DNA of 64,000 nt from Acidimicrobiia bacterium (GCA_040902845.1 JBBDWM010000024.1:25854-89853), one strand, 5' to 3'; counted from the first letter of the stretch, positions 2,627 to 20,378 are shown. The notes: generated from the sequence alone by a model not told the origin. Translations and numbers: made by a program.

Positions 2627-2670
2627 CTCGCCAACCTATTGCACGGGGTTTCTGACGGCGAGTCGGGAAA

Positions 2671-2780
2671 ACCGTTTGCCGTTAACCGTTAACCGTTAAC
2701 CGTAAAACGGAGACCACGCAGTACCGGGCTACTCTCGGCGTTGAACGGAAAACGCAGAACGGGAAACGGAAAACGGAACC
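2671..2780. repeat. Inverted arrays of 7-bp-period tandem repeats, (CCGTTAA)n then (AACGGAA/AACGCAG)n, in the divergent ybaN/fba promoter region
   Basis: The first half reads accgtttgCCGTTAACCGTTAACCGTTAACCGTAAAACGG and the second half reads gAACGGAAAACGCAGAACGGGAAACGGAAAACGGAACC. The halves are mutual reverse complements in motif type. The stretch is AT-rich relative to the genome. Confidence 0.7.
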
Positions 2781-3809
2781 ATGCCCATCGTCACGCCCGA
2801 GAAGTACCGAAAGATGTTCCAGGCCGCCCGGGAGGGTGGCTACGCCTTCCCCGCCATCAACGTGGCCGCTTCCACCACCCTGCTGGCGGCCCTCGAGGGC
2901 TTCAGCGAAGCGCGATCCGACGGGATCGTCCAGGTCTCCTACGGCGCAGCCGAATTCGCCTCCGGTCAGTCCAATAAGGACATGCCGACGGGGGCCCGCG
3001 CCCTGGCCGAGTTCGCCCACGTGGTGGCCGAGCAGTACCCGGTGAACATCGCTCTCCACACCGACCACTGCCCAGCCAATCGTGTGGACGGATTCATCCG
3101 TCCCCTCCTCGAGGTGAGCAGGCAACGCAAGGCAGCCGGGCTGGGTCCGCTCTTCCAATCCCACATGCTGGACGCCTCGGACCTACCCATGGAGGAGAAC
3201 CTGGCGCTGGCCGCCGACCTGTTGGCGACCTGTTCCGAACTGGAGATCATCCTCGAGTTGGAAATCGGCATCGTGGGCGGGGTCGAGGACGCCAGCGACA
3301 ACGAAAACATCGACCGGGGGAAGATGTACACCTCGCCCGAGGACATGGTGCGGGTCACCGAGGTCCTCGGCGCCTCAGAGGGTGGCCGATACCTGCTGGC
3401 CGCGGTCTTCGGCAACGTGCATGGTGTCTACAAGCCGGGCGCGGTCAAACTGAGCCCTGCGATCCTCCGCGACGGCCAGGAGGCGGTCGAGGCCGGATAT
3501 GGCGATACGGCTCGTCACTATCTGGTCTTCCATGGGGGCAGCGGCTCGACACTGGAAGAGATCCGGGAGACGCTCGGCTACGGGGTGGTGAAGATGAACA
3601 TCGACACCGACTGTCAGTACGCCTATACCCGACCCATCGTGGACCACGTGATGACCAACTACGCAGGGGTTCTCAAGGTCGATGGCAACGTGGGTGACAA
3701 GAAGACCTACGACCCACGGTCATACATGAGGAAGGGTGAGAGCGGAATGGCGGCCCGGGTGGTAGAGGCGTGCGAGCAACTCCAGTCGTCGGGGAAGACG
3801 ATCGGCTGA
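2781..3809 (+). CDS. fba: Class II fructose-1,6-bisphosphate aldolase
   Basis: The 342-aa protein starts MPIVTPEKYRKMFQAAREGGYAFPAINV and contains HTDHC, matching the actinobacterial Fba length. Confidence 0.9.
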   Translation: MPIVTPEKYRKMFQAAREGGYAFPAINVAASTTLLAALEGFSEARSDGIVQVSYGAAEFASGQSNKDMPTGARALAEFAHVVAEQYPVNIALHTDHCPANRVDGFIRPLLEVSRQRKAAGLGPLFQSHMLDASDLPMEENLALAADLLATCSELEIILELEIGIVGGVEDASDNENIDRGKMYTSPEDMVRVTEVLGASEGGRYLLAAVFGNVHGVYKPGAVKLSPAILRDGQEAVEAGYGDTARHYLVFHGGSGSTLEEIRETLGYGVVKMNIDTDCQYAYTRPIVDHVMTNYAGVLKVDGNVGDKKTYDPRSYMRKGESGMAARVVEACEQLQSSGKTIG

Positions 3810-16095: not shown

Positions 16096-16962
16096 CTAGA
16101 CGCTCACCAGCGCCTTGTCGGCGTCGGCCGAGACGAATTCTTGCGTCCTGTCCAGCCACCAAATCATCACGACGCCACCGACGCCTGCAGCGAGACCGCT
16201 CAGTTGATTCCAGGTGAATCCCCCAACCACCGCGTCCCCCATCCCGAAACGCAGGCCGTCGAGAAGGAAGCGCTGGAAGCCATACCAGGCGACCCAGATG
16301 AAGAAGAGTTGGCCGTAGTGAAGCCGGAAGCGGCGGTAGACCAAGAAGAGGACACCCAGCAGCACCGCGGCGCCGATCAGGTCGTAGAGGGCCACATGGT
16401 GATAGATCCCACAAAACCCGTCGGCACCAACCGTCGACTCGGTGCACTCCAGGCCGTTGTGCTGGGGGGCCACGTCGTAACCGGGTCGGATCCCGTAACC
16501 CCACCACGCGGTCGTCGCCCTGCCCAGATGCTCGACAATGGCAAGGTCACCGATCCTCCCTACGACGGTGCCCAGCGCCAGTCCGAACGATGATGCATCC
16601 AGTGTGGCCAGGACCGGCATCCCCAACTGACGCATCCGCCACCCACCGGCGAGGATGCCTCCCAGGAACCCACCCATGATCGAGAAGTTCCCCGCGATCG
16701 GATTCAATGCCTCGAGCAACGGGGTGTCGCCCATGATTTGAGCCGGGGCGGTGGAATAGCGGGCACCGAGCAGGGCTCCGATCAGGCCCCAGGTCAGGCA
16801 TGACTGGTACTTCACCGTGTCGAAGCCACGTTTCTTCAACTCCCGGGTGGCGATCCAGGCACCGGCCACGAACCCGAGAGCGGCAAACACCCCGTGCAGG
16901 GAGAAGTTGATCGGGCCCAGCTCCCAGATCGGGATCGGTGGATAAGTGATCACGGCAAGCAT
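16096..16962 (-). CDS. lgt: Prolipoprotein diacylglyceryl transferase
   Basis: The 288-aa multi-TM protein has the Lgt signature region GxxYxxA...GRIGDLAIVEH. Confidence 0.9.
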   Translation of the reverse strand: MLAVITYPPIPIWELGPINFSLHGVFAALGFVAGAWIATRELKKRGFDTVKYQSCLTWGLIGALLGARYSTAPAQIMGDTPLLEALNPIAGNFSIMGGFLGGILAGGWRMRQLGMPVLATLDASSFGLALGTVVGRIGDLAIVEHLGRATTAWWGYGIRPGYDVAPQHNGLECTESTVGADGFCGIYHHVALYDLIGAAVLLGVLFLVYRRFRLHYGQLFFIWVAWYGFQRFLLDGLRFGMGDAVVGGFTWNQLSGLAAGVGGVVMIWWLDRTQEFVSADADKALVSV

Positions 16963-16971
16963 GGAAGGGGA

Positions 16972-17105
16972 GGGTACTTGGTACTCAGTACTGGGTACTT
17001 AGACCAGACCGAGTCGCAATACGCAATACGCAATACGCAAAACCAAAACGCAATACGCAAAACGCAAAACGGTGAACGGTCAACGGCGAACGGTCAACGG
17101 TCTCG
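16972..17105. repeat. Composite 7-bp-period tandem repeat tract: (NGGTACT)x4, (CGCAATA)x3, CGCAAAA variants, (ACGGYSA)x5, between divergent lgt and a membrane protein gene
   Basis: It reads GGGTACTTGGTACTCAGTACTGGGTACT ... CGCAATACGCAATACGCAATACGCAAAACCAAAACGCAATACGCAAAACGCAAAACGGTGAACGGTCAACGGCGAACGGTCAACGGTC. The strict heptad periodicity shares motifs with loci 2671-2780 and 43272-43331. Confidence 0.75.
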
Positions 17106-17143
17106 GCCAAAGTCGGCCGGCATTGGAGTTAAAGTCCCGCAAC

Positions 17144-19284: not shown

Positions 19285-20378
19285 CGGATGACTGCTTCCA
19301 GGTCGTCGAGAAGGAGGTTCAACTCGGAGACGGTGCGGTCACCCATGTGCCCGATCCGGATCGTGGTCTCCTTTAGCTTCCCGTAGCCCGAGCCGATCAC
19401 CCAATTTCGCTCTTTCATGCCCGCCACGACATCGGGACCGGCGAGTCGCGGTGGGAGGCTGATGCAGGACACTGTTGGCGAGCGATGACCTTCGGGGGCA
19501 AACGGCGCCAACCCCAGTCCAGACATGTCATCGATCCACTCGAGCGTTCGCTCCCGCATCGCCGTGTGACGCTTCCACCGCGTCTCGATGCCCTCGGCGA
19601 GGATCCTCTCCAACTGCAACCGCAACGCGTACATCAGCGAGATCGCCGGTGTGGCCGGAGTTTGCAGAGCCTCCAGACTCCGGGTCAATGCAATCAGATC
19701 GAAATAGACACCTTTGTCGGACAGGGTGGCGGAACGCTCCAGCATCGCATCGGAGGCAACCCCGAAGGCCATGCCCGGCGGCAGCGCCAGGGCTTTCTGC
19801 GAACCGGTGAGCACCCAATCGAGAAGCCAATCGTCGGTGCGAACCTCGGTGCCACAGACTCCGGTGACCGAATCCACCAGCAGAAGGGCGCGCTCGTCGC
19901 CTGCCACCACCTGGGCCAGGCCTTCCAGGTCCTGGAGGACCCCGGTGGAGGTCTCCGAATGAGTGACGGTGACCGCGTCATAGACACCTGAGGCCAATCG
20001 ATCGGCGAGTCCTGCGGGGAGGTGATATTCACCCCACGGCACCTCCCATACATCGACGTTCCGCCCACAGGCTGTCGCGATGTCGACAAATCTCTTGGAG
20101 AACGCCCCATTGACCAGGGAGAGAACCTTGCCGTCTCCTACCCCGTTCCTGATCCCGGCCTCCATCAACCCAGTGGCCGAGGAGGTCGAGATGATCACGG
20201 GTCGCTCGGTGAGGAAGACCTGTTTCAGACCGACCTGGATCTCGGCGATCAGGTCCTGGATCGCCGATCCCCGATGACCGATCATGGGATGGGTTTGGGC
20301 AGCCAGCACCTCGGAATCCACCTCAGTGGGCCCGGGTAGGAAGAACCGACCAATCGACGTGGTTGCGTGCTGCCTCAA
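19281..20378 (-). CDS. Class V aminotransferase (serine-glyoxylate / phosphoserine aminotransferase-like)
   Basis: The 365-aa protein has a PLP-lysine region TGSQKALALPPG. Its operon with the SerA-like gene suggests serine metabolism. Confidence 0.8.
   Translation of the reverse strand: MRQHATTSIGRFFLPGPTEVDSEVLAAQTHPMIGHRGSAIQDLIAEIQVGLKQVFLTERPVIISTSSATGLMEAGIRNGVGDGKVLSLVNGAFSKRFVDIATACGRNVDVWEVPWGEYHLPAGLADRLASGVYDAVTVTHSETSTGVLQDLEGLAQVVAGDERALLLVDSVTGVCGTEVRTDDWLLDWVLTGSQKALALPPGMAFGVASDAMLERSATLSDKGVYFDLIALTRSLEALQTPATPAISLMYALRLQLERILAEGIETRWKRHTAMRERTLEWIDDMSGLGLAPFAPEGHRSPTVSCISLPPRLAGPDVVAGMKERNWVIGSGYGKLKETTIRIGHMGDRTVSELNLLLDDLEAVIR

Follow-up and report, generated by a model that had tools for sequence, protein, structure and literature searches.

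The period-7 arrays described here are probably heptanucleotide simple-sequence repeats (SSRs), bacterial microsatellites generated by slippage and tolerated in promoter-proximal, leader and terminator-proximal spacers. They were found in a stretch of 64,000 nucleotides from an Acidimicrobiia bacterium, called the window below, at three intergenic sites. At the same sites in related contigs the arrays differ in length and in sequence, and relatives with 0 to 11 units all retain intact genes. The comparison suggests that the arrays are not conserved devices, and nothing in it points to a dedicated protein-binding or switching device.

Period-7 arrays at three intergenic sites

Tandem Repeats Finder (TRF) called six period-7 arrays of 3.4-8.3 copies in the window (Table 1). 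A self-match scan (28-nt frames, at least 23 matches, periods 4-15) gave 32 positions for period 7, every one within the three loci, and zero positions in the 64 kb for periods 4-6 and 8-15, which therefore serve as an internal control. A looser threshold raised period 7 to 60 positions and brought in 22 of period 14, a harmonic of period 7, and 6 of period 6; all other periods stayed at 0. Among the intergenic regions of at least 40 bp in the window, these three alone carried period-7 signal, and the sole other period-7 match (20259-20284, score 31) is weak and coding. The sequence-only reading had reported tandem arrays with a strict 7-bp period in these tracts. TRF and the self-match scan confirm the arrays and the period is real; the word "strict" is slightly generous for arrays with 76-94% match and a single unit of 6 nt. 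The array units are non-coding: every array with 3.4 or more copies at these loci lies between annotated genes. The tracts are AT-richer, as had been stated, with a GC content of 0.49-0.55 versus about 0.63 for the window, and the Pfam matches agree with the earlier description of the flanking genes as two divergent pairs and one convergent pair.

The units at the three loci belong to the families AACGGNN, ACGCANN and GGTACTN. That motifs are common to the loci was borne out by a count of unit pairs with at most one mismatch between non-orthologous sites: there are 17 such pairs, which are partly non-independent, versus 3.8 ± 1.9 in shuffles, and 0 of 2000 shuffles attained 17. At 2671-2780 and 43272-43331 the left and right halves are reverse-complementary in a 4-5 nt core (CCGTT/AACGG and ACGCA/TGCGT, respectively), so the inverted halves noted there before are real. 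Three other kinds of element were discarded. The 7-bp unit and the absence of spacers speak against a CRISPR; the position outside ORFs and a unit length not divisible by 3 speak against a coding repeat; and the lack of terminal repeats and of a transposase, together with units that run on from heptads of the local flanks, speaks against insertion of a mobile element. A search for tRNA and tmRNA genes found none. Rfam gave nothing at the gathering score across the window and, at E<=1, nothing close to that score in the three regions.

Table 1. Genes, arrays and putative promoter elements at the three period-7 loci of the window.
Feature	Position	Strand	Basis	Remarks
DUF454/YbaN	2183-2626	minus	Pfam	divergent from fba
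Conserved 22-nt block TTTCTGACGGCGAGTCGGGAAA / TTKCTGACGGCGAGTCGGNAAA	2649-2670	plus		holds imperfect palindrome CTGAC-N5-GTCGG
Left half-array CCGTTNN, about x6 (CCGTTTG CCGTTAA x3 CCGTAAA ACGG)	2670-2713	plus	TRF, 4.9 copies
AACCGTT x4.9	2670-2703		TRF
TACTCT, putative fba -10 hexamer	2730-2735	plus	TANNNT type	in loop between half-arrays
Right half-array AACGGAA AACGCAG AACGGGA AACGGAA AACGGAA	2744-2778	plus	TRF, AACGGAA x5.0
Class II fructose-bisphosphate aldolase (fba)	2781-3809	plus	Pfam	ATG 2781
Lgt	16096-16962	minus	Pfam	divergent from orf17144
TACCCT, putative lgt -10 box	16971-16976	minus		within lgt-proximal copy of AGTACCN array
GGTACTN x4 (minus strand AGTACCN x4)	16971-17000	minus	TRF	units self-complementary around GTAC
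GGTACTT x4.0	16973-17000		TRF
CGCAAWA x8.3	17015-17071	plus	TRF, CGCAAAA x8.3, score 79	3% indels from single 6-nt unit CCAAAA; spacer between divergent lgt and orf17144 promoters
AACGGTS x5	17068-17102	plus	TRF, AACGGTC x5.0	joined directly to CGCAAWA array
TAAAGT, putative orf17144 -10 box	17130-17135	plus		8 nt ahead of GTG 17144; conserved in relatives
orf17144, membrane protein	GTG 17144	plus		start codon conserved in relatives
162-aa ORF	42728-43216	plus		convergent with DUF4332 gene
ACGCANN x4 half-array (ACGCAGT ACGCATA TCGCAAT ACGCAGC)	43274-43301	plus	read from sequence	one hairpin arm
GCGTTTT x3.4 half-array (reverse complement AAAACGC)	43307-43330	plus	TRF	other hairpin arm
DUF4332 protein	43352-43777	minus	Pfam

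In actinobacteria the -10 element follows the rule TANNNT, and leaderless mRNAs are common. Scans for E. coli-type promoter consensus found nothing at these sites, and the promoter positions that we infer therefore rest on conservation, on the TANNNT rule and on how common leaderless mRNAs are. In the ybaN-fba region, the left half-array lies upstream of the putative fba -10 box and forms the 5' arm of a ladder hairpin. The right half-array ends 2 nt ahead of the fba ATG, so that with the -10 box at 2730-2735 it would be essentially the whole 5' leader of fba, and heptads stand there in place of the GGAG-type ribosome-binding sequences of relatives. The leader of fba in the window would consist of 45 nt of heptads, whereas fba of the related contig L131 looks leaderless. 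At the lgt site, AAGTACCCTC, which L148 and L149 share, lies 7-8 nt ahead of the lgt ATG, and the putative -10 box TACCCT 8 nt ahead of it; lgt would be leaderless or near-leaderless. The GGTACTN array folds on itself as a 13-bp stem via GTAC, and the AACGGTS array ends about 28 nt ahead of the putative orf17144 -10 box. The genes lgt, orf17144 and ybaN all look leaderless, with a TANNNT box 6-8 nt ahead of their start codons; the ybaN box, 6 nt ahead of GTG 2626, occupies 2633-2638 and reads TAGGTT on the minus strand (plus strand AACCTA). On these assignments the arrays would lie upstream of the -35 element, end at it or fall in the 5' leader, and none would lie inside the spacer between -35 and -10.

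At the convergent site, the GCGTTTT half-array lies 22 nt downstream of the DUF4332 stop codon (minus strand). Two short GC hairpins flank the heptad hairpin, at 43240-43261 and 43331-43351. The GGGGGGCCCTTCGGGGCCCCTC hairpin, which follows the 162-aa ORF, is conserved in 5/5 relatives examined and is probably the real terminator of this plus-strand gene; a GAGCC...GGCTC hairpin stands directly after the DUF4332 stop. Heptad hairpins were also seen between other convergent genes. One of them, in L145 (7420-7480; CGCAGTA CGCAGTG CGCACAA CGCAGTA / CGTATAG CGTTTTG CGTATTG), is at a non-orthologous site that falls outside the window, and about 80% identical over 55 nt to 43272-43331 of the window; the element would be dispersed, or the same units would have arisen by convergence. 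The other, in the 1.14-Mb relative L121 (6941-6968), is a palindrome of GTAC heptads, CCGTACCTGGTACCAAGTACTTGGTACGG, with a fold z of -4.4, which lies exactly between two convergent genes and looks like a bidirectional terminator built from heptads.

The same sites in relatives

The sequence-only reading had proposed that repeat copy number be compared at these loci, and the comparison was carried out on the orthologous sites of relatives. About 30 related contigs cover the three sites, and the best protein matches all come from Acidimicrobiia metagenome-assembled genomes (MAGs). For ybaN-fba, a metagenome scan with the conserved 22-nt block gave 21 orthologous regions, to which L121, L122 and L126 were added. 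Nucleotide identity in the flanks is about 84% for the closest relative, and the comparisons are with relatives rather than with the window's own species. The exact Fba protein of the window has no match on record; what is shown is accordingly polymorphism in relatives and not in the window's own arrays, and the copy-number differences are taken from metagenome assemblies.

The layout of the ybaN-fba region is constant in about 25 contigs: conserved block, variable segment, G[CG]TACYYTC box, leader and ATG. The block at 2649-2670 is identical or near-identical in about 25 Acidimicrobiia contigs (L121, L122, L126-L147), always between ybaN and fba, and marks the fixed left boundary of the variable array region. 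It is probably part of the ybaN promoter or an operator, and if it belongs to the promoter it may be the -35 side of a leaderless ybaN promoter. The G[CG]TACYYTC box is present in all orthologous ybaN-fba regions; its TACYYT core agrees with TANNNT and reads TACTCT, the putative fba -10 hexamer, in the window. What stands between the two differs from contig to contig. The variable segment holds (GGTACTT)4 in L146 and 10.4 copies of this unit in L138, decayed GGTACTT copies in L134, L126 and L121, GTACTGA units in L140 and L141, GGTTGTC about x10 in L130, GCGTTTG in L131, GGTGGTA in L132, (CCGTTAT)4 in L145, CCGTTCN in L127 and L133, and GCGTTCT in L147; no array was found in this segment in L128, L129, L135, L136 and L143. 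L140 and L141 are 99.4-100% identical in the flanks and their arrays differ by exactly one 7-bp unit, and L146, L134 and L138, with flanks 95-97% identical, have 4, about 4 degenerate and 10.4 GGTACTT copies, respectively.

The heptads of the fba leader are homologous between contigs and differently homogenised: the leader reads GACGCAG AACGTAG GACGGAA in L127 and AACGCAA GACGCAA TACGTAG GACGGAA in L145, and the window units AACGGAA/AACGCAG correspond to GACGGAA/GACGCAG of these two contigs. In L131 (~1260-1281) the fba -10 box lies 6 nt ahead of the ATG, a leaderless layout. Some units can be followed into the neighbouring DNA. The NNGTCGG units of L130 run on from the adjoining conserved GAGTCGG, and many relatives have AAAACGG beside the conserved block. 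In blastn, homology of the relatives to the window breaks off at the array edges, 2670/2775 and 16983/17144.

Array content varies at the other two sites as well. At the lgt site, L148 and L149 (86% Lgt identity) are without arrays and have GC-rich hairpin sequence instead, and L150 has (GGTACCT)3; the CGCAAWA array at 17015-17071 is absent from all three. The spacers of L148 (9790-9960) and L149 (9850-9990) are GC-rich and contain multiple hairpins, for example TTTCTCCCCCCAGCGAACGGAGTGAGTGTTGGGGGGAGA and GGAGGGGGGCTTGCCC...GGGCGCCCCCTCC, which suggests that repeat or hairpin DNA in general can settle in the spacer upstream of lgt. At the DUF4332 site, L630 (97% amino-acid identity) has (CCGTAAT)3 facing (NAACGG)2, and L631 has the palindrome GTCGTAATAC|GTATTACGAC. 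Three different heptad hairpins thus occupy this site in the window, L630 and L631, and no heptads were found there in L632 and L633.

These data are consistent with replication slippage in intergenic DNA as the source of the arrays and of their turnover. Units of 7 bp would be tolerated between genes because within one they would shift the reading frame. Each array would grow from a local seed heptad. Copies would then be homogenised within the array, whole units gained or lost, and arrays would decay or be replaced. Within-array copies are more alike than orthologous arrays are, which is the signature of slippage-driven concerted evolution. The inverted half-arrays would probably come from inverted duplication or template switching between the arms. 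In this genome they would take up three kinds of position: next to core promoters (fba, lgt and orf17144), in the upstream spacer and in part over the promoter itself; the fba 5' leader, over its full length; and, at the convergent genes, the stretch between two terminator hairpins. From these comparisons we infer slippage and template switching, with weak or no selected function. The arrays are compatible with expression of the neighbouring genes, which they may modulate through leader length or structure, promoter context or 3'-end structure. Three observations fit slippage less well: pure random seeding does not predict the restricted shared repertoire (GGTACYT, AACGGNN, ACGCANN and CCGACTA), arms that remain complementary despite changed sequence could mean selection on structure, and the preference for 7 bp is left without account. 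The restricted repertoire and the co-varying arms keep alternatives based on hairpins, on a binding factor and on phase variation alive.

Hairpins, binding factors and promoter geometry

The inverted halves can form ladder hairpins, in which 4-5 bp helices are separated by internal loops of 2-3 nt, and these fold better than shuffles. The fold z of 43265-43340 is -4.9 (plus strand) and -3.1 to -3.4 (minus strand), and that of 2660-2785 is -2.0/-2.5, or -4.1 for the trimmed fba region. It is possible, though we think it unlikely, that the inverted half-arrays and the self-complementary GTAC arrays are structural elements under selection, kept for an RNA hairpin or a DNA cruciform. Such an element might terminate or stabilise 3' ends between convergent genes or, at fba, form a structure that responds to supercoiling or read-through and holds the -10 box and the ribosome-binding region within it. 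Such selection would agree with arms that change sequence and stay complementary at the fba site (window, L147 with z -4.9, L132 with z -5.5, and L145) and at the DUF4332 site (window, L630, and L631 with z -6.5), with the similar heptad hairpins between convergent genes in L145 (z -4.7) and L121, and with the inverted array pairs in 28% of the 120 listed loci from other phyla described in the next section. However, the fold z at the fba site is near 0 in L131, L130, L129, L128, L136, L143, L134 and L146, and L632 and L633 are without the element; with so many orthologues lacking structure or element, hairpin potential is frequent rather than conserved. The CGCAAWA and AACGGTS arrays of the lgt locus have no partner arm. 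Transcription from the putative -10 box, which lies in the loop, would leave the fba mRNA with a single arm. A search for intrinsic terminators gave a trivial 5-bp stem as the sole terminator-like match and no terminator with a U-tract, and conserved GC hairpins already flank the DUF4332-site element. In addition, pairing is limited to the 4-5 nt core, the spacer mismatches fit independent homogenisation of the arrays, and template switching can maintain palindromes in the absence of selection.

The restricted units common to non-orthologous sites and genomes, together with the location of arrays at promoters and in a 5' leader, could be explained by a factor specific to the lineage, each monomer of which would read about 7 nt of DNA or RNA; a protein of OB-fold or cold-shock type and a nucleoid-associated protein are examples. 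CspB takes one heptamer per protein, and a TAACTGA-binding protein has been speculated (PMC4679880). We regard recognition arrays of this kind as quite improbable, since the unit is freely replaced or lost at one orthologous site, which is unexpected for a required site, and a 7-bp period places successive sites 240 degrees apart on B-DNA. Moreover, no conserved partner gene stands beside the arrays, no known RNA family matches, and control heptads chosen arbitrarily are just as prone to form arrays in other sequence collections. The earlier suggestion of binding arrays for a nucleoid-associated or iteron-type protein finds no support: orthologous sites carry GGTACTT, GTACTGA, GGTTGTC, GGTGGTA, CCGTTAT, GCGTTCT or no units, and there is no replication gene context. 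Iterons were ruled out on the same grounds and by the 7-bp unit; iteron or operator repeats have units of about 17-22 bp or are helically phased, and no rep or regulator gene is nearby. The idea that slipped-strand change acts on these tracts is supported in its mutational part, given the single-unit difference of L140 and L141 and the 4, about 4 and 10.4 copies in L146, L134 and L138, and finds no support in its proposal of phase-variable promoter spacing. If the arrays were contingency loci, gain or loss of units would switch fba, ybaN, lgt or orf17144 through promoter geometry, and the whole-unit copy differences between near-identical contigs and the overlap of arrays with promoter regions of divergent genes would be expected. 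We nevertheless hold such switching to be very improbable. The tracts are neither in an ORF nor, on our promoter assignments, between the -35 and -10 boxes, so that an added unit would change neither the -35/-10 spacing nor the reading frame; where an array ends at the -35 element, the last copy would supply it at any copy number, and an array in the leader leaves the reading frame unchanged. Contingency tracts of high mutability are unlike these arrays, which are short and, with 76-94% match, imperfect. Their neighbours are fba, ybaN/DUF454, lgt, a membrane protein gene and a DUF4332 gene, and of these fba, lgt and ybaN are housekeeping genes rather than surface, virulence or restriction-modification genes. 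The genes also stay intact in relatives with 0 to 11 units.

Heptamer repeats in other bacteria

Slippage-generated SSRs agree with what has been described elsewhere. Among long SSRs, heptanucleotides are reported to be the most abundant class in the majority of prokaryotic genomes, and polymerase slippage has been proposed as the cause of heptamer SSRs (Mrazek 2007, as cited in PMC4679880). In that survey (Mrazek, Guo & Shah 2007, via PMC4679880 and PMC4692102), prokaryotic long SSRs of the heptamer class consist of head-to-tail 7-nt units in a few to about 10 copies, are mostly non-coding, occur many times per genome and are over-represented versus other unit lengths. The arrays here likewise have at least three tandem 7-nt copies, lie in non-coding DNA and are unstable between relatives at orthologous sites, and differ from those repeats in their units (AACGGNN, ACGCANN and GGTACTN). 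No earlier description of heptad arrays specific to Acidimicrobiia was found in the literature searched.

Xanthomonas heptamers are over-represented in intergenic DNA, occur as inverted pairs, are retained at the same site and vary in length and sequence between species (Rehm et al. 2015, PMC4692102). The GGGAATC/GGGGAYT repeats of Xanthomonas and Nostoc resemble the arrays here in their intergenic position near ORFs, same-site retention and variability, and some form inverted pairs that give stem-loops or cruciforms. However, they are G-rich and form G-quadruplexes, which units with no G-runs cannot do, and there is one dominant unit per genome, whereas several unit families occur here (PMC4692102). 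TAACTGA repeats are known from marine Beggiatoaceae, cyanobacteria and some Bacteroidetes, and have prompted speculation about translational regulation or a protein that binds the heptamer (MacGregor 2015, PMC4679880). With 2-6 or more copies, they are mainly intergenic and directly upstream of start codons, as AACGGAA is at the fba ATG. Unlike the arrays here, which have several units and frequent inverted halves and also lie upstream of promoters and at gene ends, they consist of a single heptamer with almost no inverted copies. The GATAGRA family of Chloroflexus is a further example of heptamers (PMC6749651).

The short tandemly repeated repetitive sequences (STRR) of cyanobacteria have units such as CCCCAGT, TTGGTCA and CAACAGT. 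These dispersed intergenic tandem heptanucleotides of Calothrix and Anabaena, as cited in PMC4692102, come in a few unit families per lineage. They belong to another phylum and have other unit sequences, so the likeness is one of kind and not of sequence family.

Arrays of this kind are widespread. The pattern of three AACGSNN units followed by AACGS, scanned in one genome per species, was found at at least 120 loci in very diverse phyla. Among the matches listed, these loci contained 252 arrays of period 7, versus 35 of period 8, 10 of period 6 and 6 of period 9. Pairs of neighbouring arrays were inverted in 45 cases (34 loci), direct in 17 and unrelated in 90, and the occurrence of inverted and composite arrays across so many phyla shows such arrangements to be generic. 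In viral contigs, the control cores ACAGS, AGACS and CAAGS and the test core AACGS were all plentiful among the matches listed, which are lower bounds, so that the cores are not rankable. The idea of AACGG as a special widespread motif was dropped, as the three arbitrary control cores matched viral contigs too. The description of the tracts as a lineage-specific microsatellite-like element is therefore right as to the microsatellite-like character, and the unit repertoire looks lineage-typical; the kind of element spans many phyla and viral contigs.

Two further observations came from these scans. Telomere-like arrays were seen in a Pirellulales MAG ((TTAGGGG)n at L055 7493-7627, running to the contig end) and in a Blastocatellia MAG ((CCCTAAA)n at L025 107-146), which could be eukaryotic contamination or the end of a linear replicon. 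The CAAGSNN pattern matched small IMG/VR contigs of about 4-12 kb (L510-L589; for example L510 1180-1285), each with 2-5 separate (CAAGCTN)n arrays; matches of the other patterns were mostly one per contig. These viral contigs are rich in AAGCTT palindromes and may represent a virus group with its own heptad arrays.

Ladder-hairpin pairs recur from Acidimicrobiia to Gemmatimonadota, Acidobacteriota and Bacteroidota. It is a speculative and improbable reading that heptad arrays, and especially these pairs, form a functional intergenic class, read or made by conserved machinery that works in steps of about 7 nt, with the small unit repertoire of each lineage set by a specific factor and with selection on the complementarity of the arms. 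If so, a structure would enclose the fba -10 box and ribosome-binding region, and convergent genes would have a 3'-end structure.

As probable slippage-generated SSRs, the arrays of this bacterium are an ordinary instance of the known intergenic excess of 7-bp microsatellites in bacterial genomes. Such tracts are not to be taken for operators, iterons or small RNAs in annotation. What the ybaN-fba region adds is a natural series of about 25 contigs in which the array at one site has been re-seeded, expanded, inverted, decayed or lost. With this series, heptad turnover could be measured, and unit identity and the complementarity of the arms examined for signs of selection. The fba leader of the window indicates that an array can replace an entire 5' leader, the Shine-Dalgarno region included, without loss of the gene.
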